This document shows positions 7,615 through 25,967 of a stretch of DNA of 32,640 nucleotides, in pieces; the stretch's first letter is position 1; the number at the start of each line of letters is the position of its first letter. The stretch lies in the IMG/VR virus record IMGVR_UViG_2541047942_000003, positions 1-32,640 of that record; one strand, written 5' to 3'. Position numbers and translations under genes: made by a program. The notes under the pieces were generated by a model. That model worked only from the letters and a program-made list of their open reading frames with translations. It made no database searches and was not told the origin of the DNA. This stretch comes from a virus (Duplodnaviria; Heunggongvirae; Uroviricota; Caudoviricetes).

Positions 7615-9293
7615 TATGCAAACTCCTCGATAATACAAATCCCTGCAGCGCCTTTCCCGCCCGTCATACTGGTTCCGCTATAACCGGCATCGTATGCACC
7701 ACCGCCACCTGAACCATATGCCTTGCCGCTAACACCACCGCCAGCGCCTGCGCGTCCACCGCCCCCCCAGTACGATGTTCCGCCTTCACCGCTGACGCCG
7801 ATATTTCCGGACTGACCGTCGCCTCCACATCCACCAATGATGTTGATATCGCCAGTACTCGGCACACCTCCGTTACCACCGTTTGTGTTTGTGACTCCTG
7901 ACTTTCCGCCGCCTGCGCCACCAGGAGCAATTAACGATGCGAATACGCTATTCCCGCCCCTGGTGCCGTTCGTCGCACTAACACCACCGGCCCCACCTGC
8001 GCCGATAGTGACTGGATAACTATTCTGTGTCGGGGTCATTATTGAAATTATTGTTCCACCGGCCCCACCGCCAGCACCGAAAAACGTTTCATTATTGGAT
8101 ATAGCCTTGCAGCCGCCCCCTCCGCCACCGCCGCCCGTTATTGTGACCCTGATCCGTTTTGTTCCTGGTGTCGGGGTGTACGTACCTGATGACGTGAAAA
8201 CCCGGGTATTCACCAAGCGTCCCACGTATCCGCTTGTATCTCCCAAACCAAGATAATGAATAACCTCCTGTTTGCTTGTTTTAGCCAGAATATCCCGTCC
8301 AACATTAGTCAGGGTTGTCAGGCTGGCTGTATCATTCCCCGTAAAATACGGTAGTTTGTCTGCCGCAGTGGCAAGGCCTGCCAGTGCGGTCAGTGTGGCG
8401 TCGGCAGGTTGTTTTCCATTGGCAAGGTCATATACAGCCTTCACGGCTTTTGGTGTGGCAGCCTGCGTTTCTGACGTGCTGTTAGTGGCACTGCTGAGCT
8501 GGACAAGGCCTTTTCCCGCTGTGGTCGCGTCCTGTGCGGTATATTTCCCGTTAGCAAGGTCATATGCTGTCTTTACCGCCTTTGGCGTTGCCGCAAGCGT
8601 TTCAGAATCGCTGTTGGTGGCACTACTGAGCTGGACAAGACCTTTTCGCGCTGTGGTCGCGTCCTGTGCAGTATATTTCCCGTTAGCAAGGTCATACGCG
8701 ATCTTTACCGCTCTCGGCGTTGCGGCCAGTGTTTCAGACGTGCTGTTGGTTGCGCTGCTTAACTGAGTAAAACCTTTTGCGGTCAGCGATGCATCCGGGT
8801 GTCGTCGTGACTGTTCGTGTTCTGAGATTTTGTCATCCACATATTTACGGGTCGCCAGTACCACCGACGGATCGATTTTCAGCGTGATGGCTTCGGTATT
8901 CGAGACAACCAGAATCATGCGGATAGTCTGGGTACGACCACTGCCTTCCTGCAACTGCGGTTTGTACGTTTCCGGGCAGTTCGCCACCGCAATGAGTACG
9001 CCTTCATCATCATAAAGCCCAATCTCACGGATCCAGAATCCTCCCTCGTTTTCAGGGATAATTTGCTCCACAATAATCTGGCTCTGATTGTTAGGGTCAA
9101 CACTCAGAAGATTCAGCGGTGCAATGCGTTTCTGGTTAATCAGTTTTGTCTGTACCGGGTCTGGTGTCGGCAAGACACCATTCGCATCACCAACGGCCAT
9201 TTGCGTCAGATTCAGCTTACTGCCGAGCATCGTCGCGTTAGCCAGTCGTGCTGCGCCCTGATTAGTCAGAATGGCGTAGTATTTCACTGTCAT
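7614..9293 (-). CDS. H: Tail fiber protein gpH with internal tandem repeats and a glycine-rich C-terminal domain
   Basis: N-terminal part is P2 gpH-like; three tandem copies of a roughly 44-aa unit (QLSSATNS.SETLAATP.AVK.AYDLANGKYTAQDATTA); C-terminal 200 aa rich in GG/GGxGG. Confidence 0.85.
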   Translation of the reverse strand: MTVKYYAILTNQGAARLANATMLGSKLNLTQMAVGDANGVLPTPDPVQTKLINQKRIAPLNLLSVDPNNQSQIIVEQIIPENEGGFWIREIGLYDDEGVLIAVANCPETYKPQLQEGSGRTQTIRMILVVSNTEAITLKIDPSVVLATRKYVDDKISEHEQSRRHPDASLTAKGFTQLSSATNSTSETLAATPRAVKIAYDLANGKYTAQDATTARKGLVQLSSATNSDSETLAATPKAVKTAYDLANGKYTAQDATTAGKGLVQLSSATNSTSETQAATPKAVKAVYDLANGKQPADATLTALAGLATAADKLPYFTGNDTASLTTLTNVGRDILAKTSKQEVIHYLGLGDTSGYVGRLVNTRVFTSSGTYTPTPGTKRIRVTITGGGGGGGGCKAISNNETFFGAGGGAGGTIISIMTPTQNSYPVTIGAGGAGGVSATNGTRGGNSVFASLIAPGGAGGGKSGVTNTNGGNGGVPSTGDINIIGGCGGDGQSGNIGVSGEGGTSYWGGGGRAGAGGGVSGKAYGSGGGGAYDAGYSGTSMTGGKGAAGICIIEEFA

Positions 9294-9901
9294 GCGTTTA
9301 CTCTCAGGTTATCAATTAAATGAATGACCGAGGCCGGGAAATAATCCCCTCCGACAATAATGGCCTCCGGGGTGTAGGGATAAACCGTCAGGGCGTCACC
9401 GTGATAGCATCCCGTTCCGGCAAAAATGTTGCCGGTTGTACTTAAACTGATAGCCAGTCCCGTCAGATGGCGACTCGCCGGTTTTGCATCAGCAACGAGA
9501 CGTTCCAGCTCCAGATACATTTCTTCGGTAATACCCTGCTCAAGCACGCCAACAACGATACGGAACGTCCCCGGCTCCTCGTTGAGCTGCCACCACTCCC
9601 TCACTTCAATCAGATAGCCGAGCGGCTCCACAACACGCCGGATTGCGCCGACAGTACCCTTATGACAGTGGATGAAATAGGCATCGCGGATAACGGTGCG
9701 TTTTGTCGCTTCCGGCCACTTTTCATCCCACCTGTCGACCGAAAAGGCCCACGCCAGCCACGGCAGCAGATTTGCCGGGCAGGTGTCCGGGTTCCACAGC
9801 TCACGAATACTGACCGGCGTTTTTTCAATTTCTGCACAGGCTTTCGCGGCAGCAATTTCAAGCGGTGATGAGCCGGTCGGCAGCAGGCGCGAATCACTCA
9901 T
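9290..9901 (-). CDS. I: Baseplate protein gpI
   Basis: 203-aa translation matches P2 gpI; synteny. Confidence 0.88.
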   Translation of the reverse strand: MSDSRLLPTGSSPLEIAAAKACAEIEKTPVSIRELWNPDTCPANLLPWLAWAFSVDRWDEKWPEATKRTVIRDAYFIHCHKGTVGAIRRVVEPLGYLIEVREWWQLNEEPGTFRIVVGVLEQGITEEMYLELERLVADAKPASRHLTGLAISLSTTGNIFAGTGCYHGDALTVYPYTPEAIIVGGDYFPASVIHLIDNLRVNA

Positions 9902-10802
9902 CCGAGCCTCCGGTCACGACGTGGTATTCGGTACAGAAAGACGCCTGCGTACTGTTGAGCACGATATCGGCCAGTGGTGCAGCCAGTTCGACACGCTGCA
10001 CGCCTTCCACATGCAAAGCGGCATAAATGGCAGACAGACGGATGTCGCGCCCCAGCCGGTGCTGTGCCGTGATATATGCTTCCAGTTTTTTCACGGCGGC
10101 CGCGCGGATGGGTTCGCTTTCGGGACCAGGGTAAAGGTAAAGCGTGGCGTTTATCTGGTATTCAACAATGGCGGCAGACTGCACGGTCACGCGGTCGGCC
10201 ACCGGTCTGACGTCCTCGCCATTAAGGGCGTTACGCACCACGGCCAGCAGGTCTTCGGATGCGACGCCGTTATTTTCACGTGACAGCACAGAGATGGTGA
10301 CGCAGGCCGGAGACGGACTGGTGACAGAGATATCCGCGACGCGCCCGTCGGCACTGCGACCATGATACTGATAGGCACCCACCGACCCGGCGACGCTTAA
10401 ACCCTCAAACGCCTGCTGAATACGCAGACGATAATCGGTGTCAGACTCCATCACTGCCGGTGTCGGCGGGATGGTCGAATCATCTGCCGGGGTGATAATC
10501 AGGCGCGTGGTGTTGTAATTGGCACCAATCACATCAAGGTCATTACCGGCGGCACAGGCCAGCATTACCGCCCGTGCGGCCTCATTCACACGCTGACGCC
10601 AGATAAGCTCACGATAAGCATTTTCCTCCAGCAGTTTGACGAGAGGCTCAGATTCCAGCGTCAGGGTACGGGCGACCGCCTCCTGCTGGTCTTCCGGGTA
10701 AAGGGAAATCAGTGTCGCCTTGCGTTCGGCGAGAATGGTTTCAAAGTCCAGCTCCTCGACCACATCCGGTGCGGGTAGCTGGTTCAGGTCGATAATCGGC
10801 AT
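9894..10802 (-). CDS. J: Baseplate wedge protein gpJ
   Basis: 302-aa translation matches P2 gpJ. Confidence 0.9.
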   Translation of the reverse strand: MPIIDLNQLPAPDVVEELDFETILAERKATLISLYPEDQQEAVARTLTLESEPLVKLLEENAYRELIWRQRVNEAARAVMLACAAGNDLDVIGANYNTTRLIITPADDSTIPPTPAVMESDTDYRLRIQQAFEGLSVAGSVGAYQYHGRSADGRVADISVTSPSPACVTISVLSRENNGVASEDLLAVVRNALNGEDVRPVADRVTVQSAAIVEYQINATLYLYPGPESEPIRAAAVKKLEAYITAQHRLGRDIRLSAIYAALHVEGVQRVELAAPLADIVLNSTQASFCTEYHVVTGGSDE

Positions 10803-18227: not shown

Positions 18228-20000
18228 ATGACCATCACCACAGACACCACTCTTTTACACGACCCGCGTCGTCAGGCGGCGCTGCTGTACTGGCAGGGGT
18301 TTTCCGTGCCGCAGATTGCCGCCATGTTGCAGATGAAACGCCCGACGGTGCAGAGCTGGAAACAGCGCGACGGCTGGGACAGCGTTGCCCCCATCAGCCG
18401 TGTCGAAATGAGTCTGGAAGCGCGACTGACCCAGCTCATCATCAAACCGCAGAAAACCGGCGGTGACTTCAAGGAAATTGACCTGCTGGGACGCCAGATT
18501 GAACGACTGGCACGGGTCAACCGCTACAATCAGACCGGCAACGAGGCAGACCTTAATCCGAACATCGCTAACCGCAACAAAGGCGGGCGGCGCAAACCGA
18601 AAAAGAATTTTTTCAGCGACGAGGCTATCGAAAAGCTGGAGCAGATTTTCTTTGAGCAGTCTTTCGACTATCAGTTGCACTGGTATCGCGCCGGGCTTGA
18701 GCACCGCATCCGCGATATCCTGAAATCCCGCCAGATTGGCGCGACGTTTTATTTTTCCCGCGAGGCGCTGCTGCGCGCCCTGAAAACCGGCCATAACCAG
18801 ATTTTTCTGTCGGCCAGTAAAACGCAGGCGTATGTGTTCCGCGAATACATCATCGCCTTTGCCCGGCTGGTTGACGTTGACCTGACCGGTGACCCGATTG
18901 TCCTGGGCAATAACGGCGCAAAACTGATTTTTCTCGGCACCAACTCCAACACCGCACAGAGCCATAACGGCGACCTGTACGTCGACGAGATTTTCTGGAT
19001 CCCGAATTTTCAGGTACTGCGTAAGGTGGCATCAGGTATGGCCTCACAGAGTCACCTGCGCTCGACCTATTTCTCCACCCCGTCCACGCTGGCGCACGAC
19101 GCCTACCCGTTCTGGTCGGGTGAACTGTTCAACCGGGGACGCGCCAGCGCCGCCGAACGCGTGGAAATCGACGTCAGTCATAACGCCCTTGCCGGTGGGC
19201 TTCTCTGTGCGGACGGCCAGTGGCGGCAGATTGTCACCATTGAGGACGCCCTGAAAGGTGGCTGCACGCTGTTCGACATTGAGCAGCTCAAACGCGAAAA
19301 CAGCGCCGACGATTTTAAAAACCTGTTCATGTGTGAATTTGTTGACGACAAGGCGTCGGTGTTCCCGTTCGAGGAGCTGCAACGCTGCATGGTCGACACG
19401 CTGGAAGAATGGGAAGACTATGCGCCGTTTGCCGCGAATCCGTTCGGCTCCCGCCCGGTATGGATTGGTTACGACCCGTCACACCGTGGCGACAGTGCCG
19501 GATGCGTGGTGCTGGCACCGCCGGTGGTGGCCGGTGGCAAATTCAGAATACTTGAGCGTCACCAGTGGAAAGGCATGGACTTTGCCACTCAGGCGGAATC
19601 CATCCGCAAACTCACCGAAAAATACAACGTCGAATACATCGGTATTGATGCCACCGGCCTCGGTGTCGGCGTGTTCCAGCTCGTGCGCTCGTTCTATCCC
19701 GCCGCGCGCGATATCCGCTACACACCGGAAATGAAAACCGCAATGGTGCTCAAGGCAAAAGACGTTATCCGCCGTGGCTGTCTGGAATATGACGTCAGCG
19801 CCACCGACATCACCAGCTCGTTTATGGCTATCCGCAAGACCATGACCAGCAGCGGACGCAGCGCCACCTATGAGGCCAGCCGCAGCGAGGAAGCCAGCCA
19901 CGCCGACCTCGCCTGGGCGACCATGCACGCCCTGTTAAATGAGCCACTCACCGCCGGTATCAGCACCCCGCTGACATCCACCATTCTGGAGTTTTACTGA
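18228..20000 (+). CDS. P: Terminase ATPase (large) subunit gpP, 590 aa
   Basis: Translation from MTITTDTTLLHDPRRQAALLYWQGFSVPQIAAM... matches P2 gpP; start at the ATG at 18228. Confidence 0.9.
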   Translation: MTITTDTTLLHDPRRQAALLYWQGFSVPQIAAMLQMKRPTVQSWKQRDGWDSVAPISRVEMSLEARLTQLIIKPQKTGGDFKEIDLLGRQIERLARVNRYNQTGNEADLNPNIANRNKGGRRKPKKNFFSDEAIEKLEQIFFEQSFDYQLHWYRAGLEHRIRDILKSRQIGATFYFSREALLRALKTGHNQIFLSASKTQAYVFREYIIAFARLVDVDLTGDPIVLGNNGAKLIFLGTNSNTAQSHNGDLYVDEIFWIPNFQVLRKVASGMASQSHLRSTYFSTPSTLAHDAYPFWSGELFNRGRASAAERVEIDVSHNALAGGLLCADGQWRQIVTIEDALKGGCTLFDIEQLKRENSADDFKNLFMCEFVDDKASVFPFEELQRCMVDTLEEWEDYAPFAANPFGSRPVWIGYDPSHRGDSAGCVVLAPPVVAGGKFRILERHQWKGMDFATQAESIRKLTEKYNVEYIGIDATGLGVGVFQLVRSFYPAARDIRYTPEMKTAMVLKAKDVIRRGCLEYDVSATDITSSFMAIRKTMTSSGRSATYEASRSEEASHADLAWATMHALLNEPLTAGISTPLTSTILEFY

Positions 20001-21019
20001 TGAGCAAGAAAAAAGGGAAAACACCGCAACCTGCGGCAAAAAAAATGACCGCCAGCGCCCCGAAAATGGAGGCATTCACCTTTGGTGAGCCGGTGCCGGT
20101 ACTCGACCGCCGTGACATTCTGGATTACGTCGAGTGCATCAGTAACGGCAGATGGTATGAGCCGCCGGTCAGCTTTACCGGTCTGGCGAAAAGCCTGCGT
20201 GCTGCCGTGCATCACAGCTCGCCGATTTACGTCAAACGCAATATTCTGGCCTCGACATTTATCCCGCATCCGTGGCTTTCCCAGCAGGATTTCAGCCGCT
20301 TTGTGCTGGATTTTCTGGTGTTCGGTAATGCGTTTCTGGAAAAGCGTTACAGCACCACCGGTAAGGTCATCAGACTGGAAACCTCACCGGCAAAATATAC
20401 CCGCCGTGGCGTGGAGGAGGATGTTTACTGGTGGGTGCCGTCCTTCAACGAGCCGACAGCCTTCACGCCCGGCTCCGTGTTTCACCTGCTGGAGCCTGAT
20501 ATTAATCAGGAGCTGTACGGCCTGCCGGAATATCTCAGCGCCCTTAACTCTGCATGGCTGAATGAGTCGGCCACGCTGTTCCGCCGCAAGTATTACGAAA
20601 ACGGCGCACATGCCGGATACATCATGTACGTCACCGATGCCGTGCAGGATCGCAACGATATCGAAATGCTTCGCGAAAACATGGTGAAGTCGAAAGGCCG
20701 CAACAACTTTAAAAATCTATTTCTCTATGCCCCACAGGGGAAAGCCGACGGCATTAAAATTATCCCGCTCAGTGAAGTGGCAACGAAGGACGATTTTTTT
20801 AATATCAAAAAAGTCAGCGCCGCAGATCTGCTGGACGCACACCGCATCCCCTTTCAGTTGATGGGCGGCAAGCCGGAGAACGTCGGGTCACTGGGGGATA
20901 TTGAGAAAGTGGCAAAAGTATTTGTCCGTAATGAACTCATTCCATTACAGGAGAGAATAAAGTCAATAAATGAATGGTTAGATATGGAAGTCATAAAATT
21001 CCATGATTATAACTTATAA
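20000..21019 (+). CDS. Q: Portal protein gpQ; the last 25 or so codons are encoded by AT-rich DNA
   Basis: 339-aa translation matches P2 gpQ; DNA composition changes sharply near 20940. Confidence 0.9.
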   Translation: MSKKKGKTPQPAAKKMTASAPKMEAFTFGEPVPVLDRRDILDYVECISNGRWYEPPVSFTGLAKSLRAAVHHSSPIYVKRNILASTFIPHPWLSQQDFSRFVLDFLVFGNAFLEKRYSTTGKVIRLETSPAKYTRRGVEEDVYWWVPSFNEPTAFTPGSVFHLLEPDINQELYGLPEYLSALNSAWLNESATLFRRKYYENGAHAGYIMYVTDAVQDRNDIEMLRENMVKSKGRNNFKNLFLYAPQGKADGIKIIPLSEVATKDDFFNIKKVSAADLLDAHRIPFQLMGGKPENVGSLGDIEKVAKVFVRNELIPLQERIKSINEWLDMEVIKFHDYNL

Positions 21020-21031
21020 GTAAATATATAA

Positions 21032-21057
21032 AGTGGGCGGAATGCAATCCCGCCTAC
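21032..21057. terminator. Stem-loop between the convergent Q and two-TM genes (putative bidirectional terminator)
   Basis: AGTGGGCGG ... CCGCCTACT, a roughly 9-bp stem with one G-U pair and a loop containing AATGCAA. Confidence 0.4.
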
Positions 21058-21061
21058 TTAA

Positions 21062-21769
21062 CTATATATACTTCCTTTTTATTCTACTTAATTCTATCAC
21101 CGATGAGGAATGACAAAATGACAAATTAATAGTATCGATATAATCCAAAATTTGACTCTCAACCTCGATAAAAATATTCTTGGGTCCATTACTAATCGAT
21201 ATACCGATTTCATCCAAAACAGCCATCATTTTTCTCTGATGAGTTTTATATTTATAGTCTTTATTTTCCTCTGTAATATGTGCATTAGCTTCCTCAATAA
21301 CACATTTGATTCTAGATATTATTTCTAGATAATCTCTCGAAACAGATATATCACCGCCCTGTGCTTCAGGAAACATAACCCTATACCATCTAAAAAAATT
21401 AACTTTCTCTGGATAGATGCTACTTCTTTTAGTTAACTCAGCACTTGCAAATTCTCTAAACATCGTCAGATGACTAGTATAATTACTATTGTTATTATTT
21501 TTAACTCCAGCGTTATATGTCATCAAAGCAATCATAACACCAAAAACGGTAACAAAAGTTGTTATAAGCCATCCAAATGCCTGAAAATACATCACTATAC
21601 CAGATGTTTTTTCCGCAAAAAATTTCAAGCACTGGCTATCAAAGCATATATCTCGTTCATATAGCCTTTCATTCTGAATAGTTTCCAAAAGAGAAATTAG
21701 CGAAAAAATCAAAAAAAGAACTGACGACACACCGACAATACATTTAAGAAGTCTAATATTTGCATTCAT
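21062..21769 (-). CDS. Two-TM membrane protein, 235 aa; candidate effector of the reverse transcriptase module
   Basis: Two predicted N-terminal hydrophobic helices (LLKCIVGVSSVLFLIFSLISLL and IVMYFQAFGWLITTFVTVFGVMIALM) and a soluble C-terminal domain; the start ATG overlaps the RT stop (ATGA); AT-rich. Confidence 0.6.
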   Translation of the reverse strand: MNANIRLLKCIVGVSSVLFLIFSLISLLETIQNERLYERDICFDSQCLKFFAEKTSGIVMYFQAFGWLITTFVTVFGVMIALMTYNAGVKNNNNSNYTSHLTMFREFASAELTKRSSIYPEKVNFFRWYRVMFPEAQGGDISVSRDYLEIISRIKCVIEEANAHITEENKDYKYKTHQRKMMAVLDEIGISISNGPKNIFIEVESQILDYIDTINLSFCHSSSVIELSRIKRKYI

Positions 21770-22956
21770 AATGGTTTTAAAGATGCCAATCTAGATTTAA
21801 AACACTCCAGTTTTTCTTTAAATGATTCAGATCGAGTAAGGATAATCATCTTATATCTCGTCAAATCATACTTTCTTTTATACCAATGTTTATTTTGATT
21901 ACCTTTCGAATACGACAACTCTAAACTTTTTATAGCTGCATCAATCACAGCAACATCTCTTTTAGATGGCATCGGTTTTATTGCCTGTAACTGTTTCTTG
22001 AATGATTCATATTTTTCATGCCCAACACGACCAAGCTTATTAACTCTCCCCATACATCTATTGAATTCTTTTCTGTATGCAACACTTGTTTTTGTATTAT
22101 TTTTTGCCGCCAGCAATTTCAAATTATGTATAGATGCCCTGATTCTTTTGACTTCATCAGATGGTAGTCGAGGTGAGTCATAGTCAACTCTTAAACCATG
22201 TACTTTTATAGGTTCAGATGAACAGTGAAATATTTTAGTTTTGTGCTTATTTATCGGCAAGTCATGCTCAGAAAGCATCCTCTCTATATGGCTTTGCATT
22301 TGAGAAAAATCATAATTACTTATTTTAGATGACACAGTAATATCATCTACCAAACGCGTATAAATAAGTCCTTTTCTCTGCGCACGCCTTACCACATCCC
22401 CTTCAACAGCGAATAAACACAAAGTTGCTATATAGCTTGATGTTAAGGCCCCCTGTACGACAAAATCATTCTTAGTACATATATCCACCAAGTATTCAAG
22501 AGCCTCATCCTTAATATGCAATATATCCTCAAACACGCTCCTAACCAGATCTCTATGAATATTATCGAAAAAATTACTTATATCCACCTTGAGAACTGTT
22601 TTTGCTCCACAATGAGCCTTTGCGCATGAAACATAGTCACGTTTGACGTTAGAATTTAAAACATCATTTTTACTAGGGACTGAACCAAACAAAAATGAAG
22701 GAAAAACCACCAATTCCTTAAAGATACGTTTATTAATTCTACTCTGTAATAATCTCATTTTAGGATGCAGGGAGTAGACAATCCGTTTGCTTCCGTCAAT
22801 TTTGGGAATTTCTTTTAGAGTATATTTCTCATCTAATGGTAGTTCTGCAATAGCTTTAAGCTCTTCAACAGAAATCGATAAAGCCTTTGACAGCTTTTCA
22901 AGTGTTGTGATAGGAGCATTGGATTTGCTGTATGGTTTAAATTTATCCATAAACAT
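21766..22956 (-). CDS. Retron-type reverse transcriptase, about 396 aa
   Basis: Motif order typical of retron RTs: LSKALSISVEEL, VLKVDISNFFDNI, QGALTSSYIATL, GLIYTRLVDDITVS (YADD position reads LVDD), KTKIF...VHG. The track start at 23040 is a TTG and is probably false; I place the start at the ATG ending at 22956 (MFMDKF), which is uncertain by a few tens of nt. Confidence 0.75.
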   Translation of the reverse strand: MFMDKFKPYSKSNAPITTLEKLSKALSISVEELKAIAELPLDEKYTLKEIPKIDGSKRIVYSLHPKMRLLQSRINKRIFKELVVFPSFLFGSVPSKNDVLNSNVKRDYVSCAKAHCGAKTVLKVDISNFFDNIHRDLVRSVFEDILHIKDEALEYLVDICTKNDFVVQGALTSSYIATLCLFAVEGDVVRRAQRKGLIYTRLVDDITVSSKISNYDFSQMQSHIERMLSEHDLPINKHKTKIFHCSSEPIKVHGLRVDYDSPRLPSDEVKRIRASIHNLKLLAAKNNTKTSVAYRKEFNRCMGRVNKLGRVGHEKYESFKKQLQAIKPMPSKRDVAVIDAAIKSLELSYSKGNQNKHWYKRKYDLTRYKMIILTRSESFKEKLECFKSRLASLKPL

Positions 22957-22973
22957 ACCATTCAAATTCAAAG

Positions 22974-23280
22974 TTACGTACGGTCTTCCCATACTCAAGG
23001 GTGGAACAGCAGAGATGCTTACATCAACAATTGTCAGCAACAGCCTCTGCTATCTTTCGACCGTACGTAATGTCGTCGGCTACAGCACCATCGTAGTTGA
23101 CGACGGTGGGGCCTCGCTGATAGGTCCATAGTGGACGCTTTTTTGTAAAAGCAAAAACTGACAATTTAGTATTGTTGACTGCCGCATACCAAGCGAATCG
23201 CTGGTGCGCTAAGAATAATGCAACAAAAAAATAAGAATTTCAATCGAGTAACTGCAAGCCAGCGACATCGTTTGGCGCGC
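22974..23280 (-). ncRNA. Structured noncoding region between cos and the RT start; candidate retron msr-msd or other RT-associated ncRNA; boundaries unresolved
   Basis: Perfect 12-bp inverted repeat TTACGTACGGTC / GACCGTACGTAA (23059-23070 and 22974-22985) enclosing a nested AGCAGAG / CTCTGCT repeat; a further hairpin at 23072-23104 and a palindrome GCTTTTTTGTAAAAGC at 23137-23152. Confidence 0.3.
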
Positions 23281-23281
23281 A

Positions 23282-23300
23282 GTGCTTTCCCCGCCTCGCC
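23282..23300 (-). other. cos: P2-type cos (19-nt cohesive-end sequence GGCGAGGCGGGGAAAGCAC on the minus strand)
   Basis: Reverse complement of 23282-23300 reads GGCGAGGCGGGGAAAGCAC followed by TGCGCGC, matching my recollection of the left end of the P2 genome. Confidence 0.65.
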
Positions 23301-23395
23301 CGCCCGCTTCATGGGGCGGTTTTGATGCAACCTCGTATTAAAGGGGACACCATAGCCCATCAAACCTCAGACTTCGCCCCTAGCTAACGTTTATG

Positions 23396-23422
23396 AATGC
23401 AATGTAATGCAACTTAATGCAA
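23396..23422 (+). promoter_or_regulatory. Three AATGCAA heptamers spaced exactly 10 bp apart, upstream of the helicase-nuclease gene; putative protein-binding sites
   Basis: AATGCAA at 23396, 23406 and 23416; followed by an AT-rich -10-like GATAAT (23434-23439) and an AAGAGG ribosome-binding site 7 nt before the ATG at 23484. Confidence 0.4.
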
Positions 23423-23483
23423 GTTATGGTAATGATAATTCTGCGTTAACAATTAAACTAATGTACCTGTAAGAGGATAAAAA

Positions 23484-25967
23484 ATGTCTGGTTTTTTCCT
23501 TGATTTAACCAAGCTTTCGCCCAGTGTAAATAGCGACACAGCGATTCCACCGCGAGATATATTTACAGCTCTACCGAGCAAAGACACCAAATTTCAATAC
23601 CCTCGAGATGTGCAATCAGAGGTCTGGGAAAAATGGTATGAAGCAAGGAGAAGCCCAACCAATGTAATAAAAATGAATACCGGAAGCGGTAAAACTTCAG
23701 TTGGGTTAATCATTCTTAAAAGCTGTATAAATGAAGGAGAAGGTCCCGCTGTATATGTTGTTCCTGACAACTATCTAGTTGAGCAAGTGGTTTTGGAGGC
23801 TAATCAACTTGGTATACCTGTAACTCAAGATGAGAGGTCCCCCAAATTTATTGCAGGTAAAGAAATTTTAGTTACAAATATATTCAAAGTGGTTAATGGA
23901 CGTTCTGCATTTGGCGTTGGAGATGATGGACAAAAAATACCAATAGGTTCTATAATAATTGACGATGCTCACGCTTGCCTTTCTTCAATTGAAGAACAAT
24001 TCTCCATTAGCATTCAAAAAAATAACCCTGCCTATGATAAATTATTCAGAATTTTTGAAAATTCACTAATGACACAAGCTGGTGCAAAAACACTAGAGAT
24101 AAAATCCGGCGATAGAAATGCTTATGTGAGAGTTCCATTTTGGAAATGGCAAGAAAGCATAAATGATATAATGACAATCTTGTTAGAAAATAAAGACCAT
24201 GATGACTTGAGTTTCAAATGGCCATTAATAAAAGACAATCTAATATTATCGAAATGCGTTGTAAGTGCTTCCAAAATAGAGATATCACCTCATTGCATAC
24301 CAATCCAAATGATCCCAAGCCTATCAAACGCAAGAAGAAAAATATTCATGACAGCTACTCTTGTCGATGAATCCATTCTAGCGAGCCACTTCGGAATAAC
24401 GGATGAATCACTCTCTAATCCGATAACACCAAAAACAATTGGTGATATTGGTGATAGAATGATACTAATGCCTCAGGTTATAAACCCTAGTCTTTCTGAT
24501 GTAGATATCAAAGCTATGTGCAAGGAGATATCCTCCAAACATAATGTTGTTGTAATTGTACCATCCGATTACAGAACTAGATTTTGGCAAGATGTTGCAG
24601 ACAGAATATTAGATAAAAATACAATTTATCAAGGTGTACAAGAATTAAGGACACAACATGTTGGCTTAGTAGTCCTAGTTAATAGATATGATGGTATTGA
24701 TTTACCAAATACCGCATGTCGTCTATTAGTAATAGATGGACTTCCTGACGTTCGTAGACTAATAGATAAAGTCTCACAAAGCTTATTGCTTGGAAGCGAA
24801 AAAACCAAAGATGAAATTATCCAGAAAATTGAACAAGGAATGGGGCGAGGAGTGAGATCAAGCGACGACTTCTGCGGAGTGATCTTACTTGGCAAAGCAT
24901 TAAATGGCGCTGTTTTCCTTGGCTCCTCCTTAGAAAGGTTTTCTCCAGCAACGAAAGCACAAATTCAACTTTCACAGCAATTGGTATCGATACTGCCGGA
25001 TACAACTATTGATTCAATCAAAGGTGCTCTTGATTATTGTCTGTTACGCAATTCTGACTGGGTCTCAAAAAGCAAAGGTATATTGACTGGCTTAACATTG
25101 GAAAATAAGCAGATTGACCAGCATACTATAAACAAAAGATTGGCATATGACTTAGCATCACGAAATATGTTTCAACAAGCCGCTTTAACTCTAAAAAATG
25201 ATAGTAGTACAGCTGACAAAGTTTATAAGGGTTATCTAAAAGAACATGCTGCGGAATATGTAAACTTATATGACAAATCTGAAGCTCAGATATTGCTTCA
25301 GTCTGCATCAAACGATAACTATCGGGTATTAAAACCACTAATCGGCGTAACATATAATAGACTTAATGGTGCGGCACTTGAACAGGCCAGGGAATGTAGC
25401 TCCTATCTCAGAAGTAATTTTGAATCGGCGAATCAAGTCGTTGTGCATACTAATTCAATAATAGAAAACCTTATTTTCTCCGAGGGCACATCGAATCCCT
25501 TCGAAGATGCTATCGAAAAAGTTGCATATTTGGTCGGTTTTCGTAGCCAACGGCCAGAAAATGATACAGGTAAAGGACCTGACAATTTATGGGCAATGGG
25601 AGAAAACAATTATCTAGTAATTGAATGCAAAAATGGAGCAACCGCAGAAAGAATAAGTAAGCATGACTGCAATCAGTTAAATGGGTCGGGTGCATGGTTC
25701 AGAAACATGTATGATCAAACTGCTACCGCCACACCTATAATGATACATCACTCTAACATGCCTGAATATGCCGCAACACTAAACGAAGGGTCTCGAATAA
25801 TGACCATAAATGATCTTGAACGTTTTAAAGCATCTATCCTCAGTTTTATCACGGCCATTTGTACAAGTGATAAACGACACGATGAGATATTTATAAGAGA
25901 ACAATTGATCACATGTAAATTACGTGCATCAGACATAGTTGAGACCTATACGCGAAACCCTCGTTAA
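23484..25967 (+). CDS. Helicase-nuclease fusion, 827 aa: Rad3/DinG-like SF2 helicase with a C-terminal PD-(D/E)xK-like motif; candidate single-gene defence protein
   Basis: Walker A NTGSGKT (aa 65-71), motif II IIIDDAHA (aa 157-164), motif III FMTATL, motif VI QGMGRGVRSSDDFCGVILLG, and C-terminal E...GPD(aa 700)...VIECK(aa 714-716); strong RBS; AT-rich; occupies the P2 old/tin position. Confidence 0.7.
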   Translation: MSGFFLDLTKLSPSVNSDTAIPPRDIFTALPSKDTKFQYPRDVQSEVWEKWYEARRSPTNVIKMNTGSGKTSVGLIILKSCINEGEGPAVYVVPDNYLVEQVVLEANQLGIPVTQDERSPKFIAGKEILVTNIFKVVNGRSAFGVGDDGQKIPIGSIIIDDAHACLSSIEEQFSISIQKNNPAYDKLFRIFENSLMTQAGAKTLEIKSGDRNAYVRVPFWKWQESINDIMTILLENKDHDDLSFKWPLIKDNLILSKCVVSASKIEISPHCIPIQMIPSLSNARRKIFMTATLVDESILASHFGITDESLSNPITPKTIGDIGDRMILMPQVINPSLSDVDIKAMCKEISSKHNVVVIVPSDYRTRFWQDVADRILDKNTIYQGVQELRTQHVGLVVLVNRYDGIDLPNTACRLLVIDGLPDVRRLIDKVSQSLLLGSEKTKDEIIQKIEQGMGRGVRSSDDFCGVILLGKALNGAVFLGSSLERFSPATKAQIQLSQQLVSILPDTTIDSIKGALDYCLLRNSDWVSKSKGILTGLTLENKQIDQHTINKRLAYDLASRNMFQQAALTLKNDSSTADKVYKGYLKEHAAEYVNLYDKSEAQILLQSASNDNYRVLKPLIGVTYNRLNGAALEQARECSSYLRSNFESANQVVVHTNSIIENLIFSEGTSNPFEDAIEKVAYLVGFRSQRPENDTGKGPDNLWAMGENNYLVIECKNGATAERISKHDCNQLNGSGAWFRNMYDQTATATPIMIHHSNMPEYAATLNEGSRIMTINDLERFKASILSFITAICTSDKRHDEIFIREQLITCKLRASDIVETYTRNPR

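Follow-up and report, generated by a model that had tools for sequence, protein, structure and literature searches.

Genes and borders of the cos-proximal module

The window analysed here, a stretch of 32,640 nucleotides from a P2-like prophage, carries a reverse transcriptase (RT) gene, an overlapping gene for a membrane protein and, upstream of both, a structured noncoding RNA (ncRNA), all on the minus strand and all between the portal gene Q and the cos site. The features of the region are the following:

20000-21019: portal gene Q, which ends before the effector gene; the two genes are convergent
20959..23274, no strand assigned: the whole replacement module, delimited by blastn against P2 (NC_001895) and including the diverged 3' end of Q (20959-21019)
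21036..21054, no strand assigned: GC-rich, terminator-like hairpin in the gap where the Q and effector genes converge, from a terminator scan
21062..21769, minus strand: effector gene, encoding a 235-aa Ec48-family membrane protein with two N-terminal transmembrane (TM) helices and an all-alpha C-terminal domain
21766..21769, minus strand: ATGA overlap of the RT stop codon (TGA, 21768-21766) and the effector start codon (ATG, 21769-21767)
21766..22950, minus strand: type IV retron RT of 394 aa, counted from ATG 22950, with alternative starts at ATG 22956 and ATG 22992
~22974..23204, minus strand: retron ncRNA (msr-msd) with extra conserved elements, from the match to the printed Eco6 ncRNA and from covariation
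23215..23243, minus strand: promoter-like site TTGAAA-17-CATTAT, from a consensus scan (9/12 matches), with a predicted start at ~23208, just before hairpin P0
23282..23300, minus strand: P2 cos cohesive-end 19-mer, the right-hand landmark, an exact match to GGCGAGGCGGGGAAAGCAC, annotated as cosL in NC_001895
26207-28528: presumed gpA ORF, assigned by position only

In the blastn comparison, P2 homology ended at window position 20958 (P2 nt 263) and restarted at 23275 (P2 nt 26); hence the 2316 bp in between were taken as replacing P2 nt 27-262. The Q protein of the window was 96% identical to P2 gpQ overall and 5 aa shorter, and 13 of its last 22 residues matched those of P2 gpQ. The GC content was 0.30-0.39 over positions 21000-23000, compared with 0.53-0.62 in the P2 genes on either side, dropping from ~0.55 to ~0.30 at the module edge. 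Thus, three claims of the first-pass annotation held: the gene pair lies between cos and Q, is AT-rich and is absent from canonical P2. The hairpin at 21036..21054 takes the place of the P2 tQ terminator, which is located in the lost P2 nt 27-262; judged from its sequence, it is a terminator-like site serving the retron operon, and the P-Q operon might also use it.

The same annotation had called the insertion point unusual, a view that the comparison with other prophages overturned. Complete E. coli genomes with the same module in the same place numbered 57, and phage pro147 (NC_028896) has it too, the retron there likewise lying between Q and cos, with a module identity of ~97.5% across these genomes and the one phage record. 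Rousset et al. (2022) define the P2 defence hotspot as the whole gpA-cos-gpQ interval, and the present block has the corresponding features, being variable, AT-rich, situated between conserved gpQ and gpA and adjoining cos. A "Type IV retron" appears among the P2-hotspot systems of their Table S5B, and the 2TM protein of that retron was identical to the window effector at 230 of 235 positions. According to the account of Dodd & Egan (1996) given in PMC6868368, Ec86 and Ec67 replace a short cos-to-terminator segment in 186-related prophages. Retron-Eco1 (Ec86) and Retron-Eco2 (Ec67) occupy the same kind of site, from cos to the packaging-operon terminator of a P2/186-family prophage; they differ from the window system in retron type, in their effectors, which are NDT-like or Toprim proteins, and in their ncRNAs, which are unrelated to that of the window, and also in that the window replacement reaches 76 nt into the Q gene (P2 numbering). 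The insertion site is the classic retron slot, and the locus is real but ordinary. Across cos, the window carries PDC-S28 as defence cargo, whereas pro147 and UPEC-245U carry AbiP2.

Reverse transcriptase and membrane effector

The mechanically called RT ORF spans 21766..23040 (minus strand) and opens at TTG 23040. Positions 22974-23040, however, are conserved as RNA structure rather than as coding sequence (see below), and the RT start is likely ATG 22956 or ATG 22950, the 394-aa form being present in RefSeq. The end at 23070 and the D232/D233 numbering proposed by the first-pass annotation presuppose the TTG start and could not be maintained; counted from ATG 22992, the catalytic aspartates are residues 216/217, in agreement with the D216A/D217A mutant numbering of Millman et al., and in the 394-aa form they are D202/D203. 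Both the 394-aa and a 408-aa form of the protein are present exactly in NCBI (WP_021570161.1). The Shine-Dalgarno sequence ahead of the likely start looks weak when read by eye.

The retron character of the RT, proposed from the sequence motifs, was confirmed by profile searches. The PADLOC RT_IV model scored 586.1 bits over profile positions 2-385 of 386, compared with at most 212 bits for every other PADLOC RT model (RT_V 212 and RT_VI 181 being the next), and Pfam RVT_1 scored 110 bits on the RT ORF. In a PDB sequence search, no solved structure was close to the RT; its closest relatives there were the retron RTs Ec86 (E=3e-16) and Kva2, and all nine matches (9/9) were retron RTs or generically named RTs. 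The family is large, with 649 homologues at E ≤ 1e-20, mostly of ~394-408 aa among the 120 matches listed, and type IV RTs have a C-terminal extension of ~75 aa.

The motif readings needed correction. The catalytic motif is YTRLVDD, not YADD, and the VTG triplet reads VHG, with CAKAH in the place of NAXXH. These deviations equal those published for RT-Eco6, in which the Asn of NAXXH is replaced and VTG has become VHG (retron RT signature regions X and Y; Simon 2019). Across 22 homologues, C109, H113, V250, H251, G252 and Y197-D203 were invariant or nearly so, and every invariant residue of the family is kept in the window copy.

The group II intron and Abi-P2 classes were compared by profile score, which placed the RT with retron type IV. 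A group II intron RT/maturase was rejected (TIGR04416 44.6 bits, cut-off 300), and Rfam gave no match to a group II intron RNA over 20500-24500 at E ≤ 10. An RT of the Abi-P2/UG class (DRT), ~500 aa long with a helical C-terminal domain, would carry out protein-primed, template-independent DNA synthesis without an ncRNA. AbiP2 is indeed carried by P2-like phages, classically in the variable locus of the coliphages of this group, and the prophages most closely related to the present one have its gene immediately beyond cos as seen from the retron. The true AbiP2 of one such related locus (L001) scored 536 bits with the PADLOC AbiP2 model, whereas AbiP2 was absent from the best 25 PADLOC families of the window RT; the NCBIfam models Drt2, Drt3a and Drt4 gave 15.9-39.5 bits against cut-offs of 200-450. 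Moreover, none of the solved Abi structures in the PDB matched the 394-aa RT by sequence, and a covarying msr-msd RNA lies upstream of it. The HMM scores refute the Abi-P2/UG reading, to which we assign practically no probability.

Downstream of the type IV RT, the ATGA shared by its stop codon and the effector start codon was read directly from the sequence, as had been claimed, and because of this overlap the two genes are probably translationally coupled; type IV effector genes are known to lie just downstream of the RT gene or to overlap it (Mestre 2020). The proposed 235-aa protein with two N-terminal TM helices agrees with both Kyte-Doolittle hydropathy, which gave two hydrophobic segments (residues ~5-31 and ~58-86), and an AF2 model with long helices at both segments (mean pLDDT 76.6). 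The effector scored 281.9 bits with PADLOC 2TM_IV over residues 3-235 and 226.7 bits with NCBIfam retron_Ec48_2TM (cut-off 65), and its sequence is identical to WP_021570160.1, which bears the Ec48-family name. Together with the RT_IV score, these matches bear out the suggested Ec48-type layout of an RT and a two-TM protein. A PDB sequence search with the effector returned zero matches, and a Foldseek search of the AF2 model against the PDB returned nothing significant, with generic helical proteins only (best E=2.2).

Noncoding RNA, identity and proposed mechanism

The ncRNA, which the first-pass annotation had called unresolved, could be located on the minus strand at ~22974-23204 by its match to Eco6. 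It agrees almost completely with the ncRNA of Retron-Eco6 given in the supplement of the retron census, differing at ~3-4 positions from that printed, machine-read sequence. Searching with Rfam models over 20500-24500 at E ≤ 10 still gave chance snoRNA and miRNA matches only and no retron family, a full-text literature search with msd and ncRNA sequence strings gave no match, and no Eco6 sequence stands in text form in the supplementary files of Palka 2022 or of Kong 2021. Pair counts for the elements below were obtained from a structure-blind MAFFT alignment of 35 loci:

23202-23192, minus strand: 5' hairpin P0, 100% paired (35 loci)
23187-23158, minus strand: a1, with a candidate branching G at 23158
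23152-23137 and 23136-23124, minus strand: msr hairpins, 82% and 89% paired (35 loci)
23039..23086, minus strand: predicted reverse-transcription template (msd), from its position just 5' of a2 and the reported msDNA length
23038-23015, minus strand: a2; distal a1/a2 91% paired, with 5/5 pairs covarying (35 loci)

The energy of the a1/a2 duplex had z < -2 in 34 of 35 loci, the single-sequence fold of the ncRNA reached -82.7 kcal/mol (z = -4.2), and all helices are intact in the window copy. From the template position we infer an msDNA of approximately 5'-AACAGCCTCTGCTATCTTTCGACCGTACGTAATGTCGTCGGCTAC(AG)-3', 45-48 nt long with ends accurate to +/- ~2 nt; for Eco6, 48 nt was originally reported and 45 nt was obtained by sequencing. 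The predicted 3' end falls on a conserved GTAG motif, and the predicted msDNA is weakly structured (-4.9 kcal/mol, z = -1.15). A window-specific msd stem, GTCGTC/GACGAC, was considered and rejected, as it was unconserved in the alignment (34-41% paired).

The arrangement of ncRNA, RT and overlapping 2TM effector is that of Retron-Eco6 (Ec48; Mao et al. 1997, Millman et al. 2020, Mestre et al. 2020), whose RT shares CAxxH, VHG, LVDD and the DD numbering with the window RT. The window differs from Retron-Eco6 by a few substitutions only, and the function of its allele is read from this likeness; the identity of ~97-98% to the tested Ec48 rests on partial comparisons, namely the ncRNA text and the 2TM sequence of Rousset et al. 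A decayed or silent remnant, with recognisable and nonfunctional genes, would fit the weak-looking Shine-Dalgarno sequence before the likely RT start and the promoter prediction: promoter-like sites in the region were no more numerous than in shuffled sequence, so that the call at 23215..23243 is positional only. Against decay stand two ORFs of full length relative to their profiles, the intact invariant residues and ncRNA helices, and the upkeep of the module at high identity in the 57 complete genomes and the phage record, and we consider a remnant highly unlikely. With the genes identified, an ncRNA with a1/a2 and msr hairpins shown, and the site found to recur elsewhere, the locus is very probably an intact three-part type IV retron (Retron-Eco6/Ec48), carried as defence cargo by a P2-like prophage in the cos-portal slot. 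The system is already known: this is another copy of the characterised Retron-Eco6 (Ec48) anti-phage system.

By analogy with that system, a single promoter upstream of the ncRNA would drive the ncRNA, RT and effector. The RT would bind the folded ncRNA, prime from the 2'-OH of the G that ends a1 and copy ~45-48 nt of the msd, after which RNase H1 would trim the template to yield msDNA; in Eco6, the length of the RT-DNA is set by RNase H1. The RT-msDNA complex would then keep the two-TM effector inactive as long as RecBCD works, and a phage that inhibits RecBCD (through lambda Gam or T7 gp5.9) would set the system off. The membrane effector would then kill the cell or halt it before any phages are released, an abortive infection, and the prophage would gain by shutting out competing phages. 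In Ec48, defence is lost without RT catalysis or without the TM helices, cells die in response to Gam or gp5.9, and a recB deletion strain could not be transformed with the system (Millman et al. 2020). Triggering of Eco6 by Gam was reproduced in later work, Eco6 protects against T7, and its effector by itself was without toxicity on overexpression.

The 3' part of type IV transcripts

Further conserved structure was found between the template and the RT start, consisting of the following elements:

22969..23074, minus strand: conserved 3' domain (S1, S2 and H3), from covariation, RNAalifold and a covariance model
23070-23059 with 22985-22974, minus strand: helix S1, 89% paired, with 12/12 pairs changed on both sides
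23054-23045 with 23014-23005, minus strand: helix S2, with its five loop-proximal pairs at least 91% paired
23001-22988, minus strand: hairpin H3, 95% paired

The domain joins the template to the leader ahead of the RT start, with a2 in the loop of S2. Four of the five loop-proximal pairs of S2 covary, with four to six pair types each, and the helices formed by the leader (a2 to RT start) with the template covary strongly across about 35-50 type IV loci. RNAalifold, unprompted, predicted S1, S2 and H3; of the 31 pairs that it predicted, those of the msr hairpins among them, 29 showed compensatory changes. With the window excluded from its building, a covariance model matched only the 3' domain within the window (76.1 bits, E=5e-18); the same model also recognised distantly related type IV loci, and it gave no match in the 13 RT loci of other types that were searched (0/13). 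Judged from these sequences, the geometry would be either a pseudoknot or an alternative fold.

Two other functions of these elements were considered and set aside. A conserved ATG inside H3 was dismissed as the start of the RT or of a small ORF, since just 5 of the 37 loci keep it in frame and open. An intrinsic terminator formed by S1 and a U-rich stretch was not adopted either: the tract is a semi-conserved TATWTTKW with no U run, and the terminator scan was silent.

The leader/template helices loosely resemble the hybrid RNA of type VI retrons, and RT_V and RT_VI rank next in PADLOC, as would be expected if the locus belonged to one of the sister types of RT clade 3, V or VI, with, e.g., the msDNA-dependent derepression of a small toxic peptide described for type VI. 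In the type VI Retron-Vpa2 (Zhang et al. 2025, preprint), whose RT belongs to a sister clade, the structured transcript exceeds the canonical msr-msd, as in the window, with a proposed role of template and cDNA in controlling what is expressed downstream. The type VI RNA, however, holds a toxic small ORF, whereas the extension in the window is a ~65-nt non-coding leader that pairs with the template, and type VI msDNA is absent until triggered, whereas Eco6 msDNA is constitutive. The RT_IV match at 586 bits across the whole profile, the 2TM_IV/Ec48 effector in place of a cold-shock, HTH or small-peptide gene, and the match of the ncRNA to Eco6 all argue against type V or VI, which we regard as extremely unlikely.

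Within type IV, the alignments of earlier ncRNA surveys were trimmed at a1/a2, and no description of the leader/template helices of type IV was found in the searchable literature. We tentatively propose, while holding it somewhat doubtful, that type IV transcripts, including that of the window, have an apparently undescribed 3' domain made up of a ~65-nt leader, the S1 and S2 helices with the reverse-transcribed msd, and H3. Because S1 and S2 pair the leader with the reverse-transcribed template, the leader in effect repeats most of the msDNA sequence in RNA form; it may be either a pseudoknot partner of the a1/a2 priming helix or a competitor to it.

For annotation, the value of the locus lies in the correct RT start, in the ncRNA coordinates and in showing that the 408-aa "RT" annotation swallows part of the ncRNA. 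If the proposed 3' domain is real, the leader could gate reverse transcription, or fix the 3' end or the stability of the ncRNA. It could also tie the expression of RT and effector to template use, since RT and RNase H destroy the template and would thereby free the leader. The domain would then provide a handle on the Ec48-type control of reverse transcription and of RT/effector expression, and on why ncRNA constructs trimmed at a2 could differ from native loci, both of which bear on how retrons work and on their use in genome editing.

Identity of the cos-proximal gene pair

Two open reading frames occupy the minus strand between 21062 and 23040. One encodes a reverse transcriptase (RT) with a Pfam RVT_1 domain (110 bits), and the other a 235-aa protein whose start codon shares an ATGA (21769–21766, minus strand) with the RT stop and which has two hydrophobic segments, at approximately residues 5–31 and 58–86. 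The GC content of this block is 30–39%, as against 53–62% in the P2 genes on either side. The first-pass annotation had described an RT gene overlapping a two-transmembrane (2TM) gene in an AT-rich block between cos and the portal gene, and open reading frames, GC content and hydropathy bear out each of these elements.

Against the PADLOC profiles, the RT matched the type IV retron RT model (RT_IV) over the whole profile with 586 bits, followed by RT_V (212 bits), RT_VI (181 bits) and, lower still, the remaining retron types. An Abi or group II intron affiliation, the alternative to be weighed according to the first-pass annotation, was far weaker: AbiP2 was not among the 25 best PADLOC families for this RT, and the NCBIfam models for group II intron RT, Drt and AbiA scored far under their cut-offs. 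The closest solved structures by sequence were the retron RTs Ec86, Kva2, Ec67 and Ec78. The RT carries CAKAH in place of NAXXH and VHG in place of VTG, together with YTRLVDD, and these residues are invariant or nearly so among 22 homologues. RT-Eco6 (Ec48) departs from NAXXH and VTG in exactly the same way (Simon et al, 2019). Numbered from the ATG at 22992, the catalytic aspartates are residues 216 and 217, the same numbering as in the Ec48 D216A/D217A mutant (Millman et al). The identical protein is in NCBI as WP_021570161.1.

The 235-aa protein scored 282 bits with the PADLOC effector profile 2TM_IV and 226.7 bits, against a cut-off of 65, with the NCBIfam equivalog retron_Ec48_2TM; NCBI has it verbatim as WP_021570160.1, under the name 'retron Ec48 family effector membrane protein'. 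It had no sequence relative among solved structures. In its AlphaFold model (mean pLDDT 76.6), the two hydrophobic segments become long helices ahead of an all-alpha domain; a Foldseek search with this model returned no fold relative (best E = 2.2). There was no match in a copy of Pfam-A lacking PF28197; effector homologues (P0017, P0165–P0183) bear this family as a precomputed assignment. The locus is an Ec48-type retron, and the earlier comparison of its layout with Retron-Ec48 was correct on both the RT_IV and the retron_Ec48_2TM scores.

By analogy with the Ec48 experiments, the window retron would share the mechanism described there. Millman et al reported that Ec48 defence requires RT catalysis and the effector transmembrane helices, that the RecBCD inhibitors lambda Gam and T7 gp5.9 cause death of Ec48 cells, and that a strain lacking recB cannot be transformed with Ec48; they interpreted Ec48 as a guard of RecBCD that acts by abortive infection. 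Triggering of Eco6 by Gam was seen again in 2025. Eco6 has also been reported to defend against T7. The 3' end of the msDNA is set by RNase H1, and the effector by itself was not toxic.

Replacement at cos and its recurrence

Homology to P2 (NC_001895) ends at window position 20958 (P2 nt 263) and restarts at 23275 (P2 nt 26); P2 nt 27–262 have therefore been swapped for 2316 bp, in agreement with the earlier claim that the pair is missing from canonical P2. The left-hand neighbours of the block are the P2 genes P (terminase) and Q (portal, end 21019), and its right-hand neighbour is the P2 cos 19-mer (23282–23300). The lost segment contains the tQ terminator and the final 76 nt of Q. The 3' end of Q (20959–21019, plus strand) is part of the AT-rich replacement, and the C-terminus has diverged from P2 gpQ (13 of the final 22 residues identical, 5 aa shorter); the junction at which the retron module recombined is therefore within Q. 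A hairpin stands where P2 has tQ:

21036–21054: GC-rich hairpin GGCGGGATTGCATTCCGCC, between the convergent Q and effector genes, 3' of the effector gene (consensus match only)

This hairpin could serve both the Q operon and the effector operon.

Among 5426 complete E. coli genomes, 57 have the same module beside the portal gene, at about 97.5% identity, and Escherichia phage pro147 has it too. Rousset et al (2022) defined the cos-proximal interval from gpA to gpQ as a P2 defence hotspot, and a 'Type IV retron' entered in their Table S5B has a 2TM protein that matches the one in the window except at 5 of 235 residues. In 186-related prophages, retrons Ec86 and Ec67 likewise take the place of a short stretch from cos to the packaging-operon terminator (Dodd & Egan, 1996, as summarised by Simon et al). 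Retrons thus classically occupy the cos–Q position in P2/186-family prophages, and it is not the unusual insertion point first proposed. The system is already known, with near-identical copies in public catalogues, and the high interest initially attached to it is not supported.

Across cos, the cargo varies between prophages. In the window, 23484–25967 (plus strand) encodes an 827-aa DEAD/ResIII helicase-like protein (PADLOC candidate PDC-S28, 1055 bits). Its gene is on the old/tin side of the P2 hotspot, and the protein has a C-terminal stretch with an 'ECK' motif; the exact protein occurs on 434 contigs, and its 90%-identity cluster has a member in Salmonella. The closest related prophages, E. 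coli UPEC-245U and phage pro147, each have a second RT gene there, which in UPEC-245U is AbiP2 (PADLOC, 536 bits):

L001 (E. coli UPEC-245U locus), 8591–10138, plus strand: second RT gene, ~515 aa, just across cos from the same retron
L003 (phage pro147), 7608–9152, plus strand: second RT gene, ~515 aa, on the far side of cos, close to the same retron

In pro147 the gene bears the annotation RNA-directed DNA polymerase, and it agrees with the UPEC-245U AbiP2 in position and roughly in size. UPEC-245U and pro147 would each have two distinct RT-based defences next to each other.

Structure of the type IV retron RNA

The first-pass annotation left the ncRNA unsettled; 5' of the RT lies a near-identical copy of the Retron-Eco6 ncRNA given in the retron census supplement (Eco6 RT, WP_097505494.1), with support from covariation. 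About 50 type IV loci were fetched from other genera, and 35 upstream regions were aligned with MAFFT without structural input. In this alignment, the distal part of the priming inverted repeats a1/a2 was 91% paired, with five of five pairs changed on both sides, the two msr hairpins were 82% and 89% paired, and a 5' hairpin was 100% paired. None of 500 shuffles reached the observed covariation score, and all slid controls fell below it. A per-sequence duplex calculation gave z < -2 for the three-part a1/a2 helix in 34 of 35 loci; the helix ends at a conserved G, in the window at 23158, in every locus inspected. The template at approximately 23039–23086 is predicted to yield a weakly structured msDNA of 45–48 nt, which fits the reported Eco6 length of 48 nt, or 45 nt by sequencing. 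The 5' hairpin (AGCG-NNN-CGCT, 23192–23202, minus strand) lies upstream of a1 and directly 3' of the predicted transcription start, covaries, and is paired in every locus aligned there; it may be a protective 5'-terminal stem.

23243–23215, minus strand: promoter-like TTGAAA-17-CATTAT, which would start the transcript just 5' of the hairpin (consensus match only)

The leader, ~65 nt from a2 to the RT start, is structured and not neutral. Helices S1 (23070–23059 with 22985–22974) and S2 (23054–23045 with 23014–23005) join this leader to the template region, and a conserved hairpin, H3, lies at 23001–22988. In the structure-blind alignment, S1 was 89% paired, with 12 of 12 pairs changed on both sides; the five loop-proximal pairs of S2 were at least 91% paired, four of them covarying with four to six pair types; and H3 was 95% paired. 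Unaided, RNAalifold recovered S1, S2 and H3; of its 31 predicted pairs, a count that takes in the msr hairpins, 29 show compensatory changes. The full RNA, folded as a single sequence, has all three in its minimum-energy structure (-82.7 kcal/mol, z = -4.2). Trained on 34 loci from outside E. coli, with the window left out, a covariance model gave exactly one significant match in the 32.6-kb window (22969–23074, minus strand, 76.1 bits, E = 5e-18) and also found distant type IV loci; it matched none of the 13 non-type-IV RT loci searched. The domain also lies just upstream of the RT start in the fetched type IV loci (L004–L055), and a conserved hairpin loop has the consensus YTNNRGTAT. Because a2 lies within the S2 loop, a1/a2 and S2 form either a pseudoknot or alternative folds, and the leader, as the pairing partner of the template, repeats much of the msDNA sequence.

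In public records the RT begins at 22950 (394 aa) or at 22992 (408 aa), and the mechanical open reading frame starts at TTG 23040. The ATG at 22992 sits within H3 and is open and in frame in only 5 of 37 loci; this start is not conserved, so what is conserved there is the RNA. A start at 22956 or 22950 is more likely for the RT than one at 22992, and in the longer forms some of the ncRNA is probably read as protein.

The ncRNA alignments of Mestre et al were cut at a1/a2, and the extension in the 'hybrid RNA' preprint on type VI, a sister clade, is unlike the type IV 3' domain; our search of the available literature found no description of the latter. The domain might act as a gate on reverse transcription, contribute to stability or termination of the RNA, or make RT expression depend on consumption of the template. 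Conserved leader–template pairing in type IV retron RNAs, which lies outside the claim of the first-pass annotation, is the only element with some potential for novelty.
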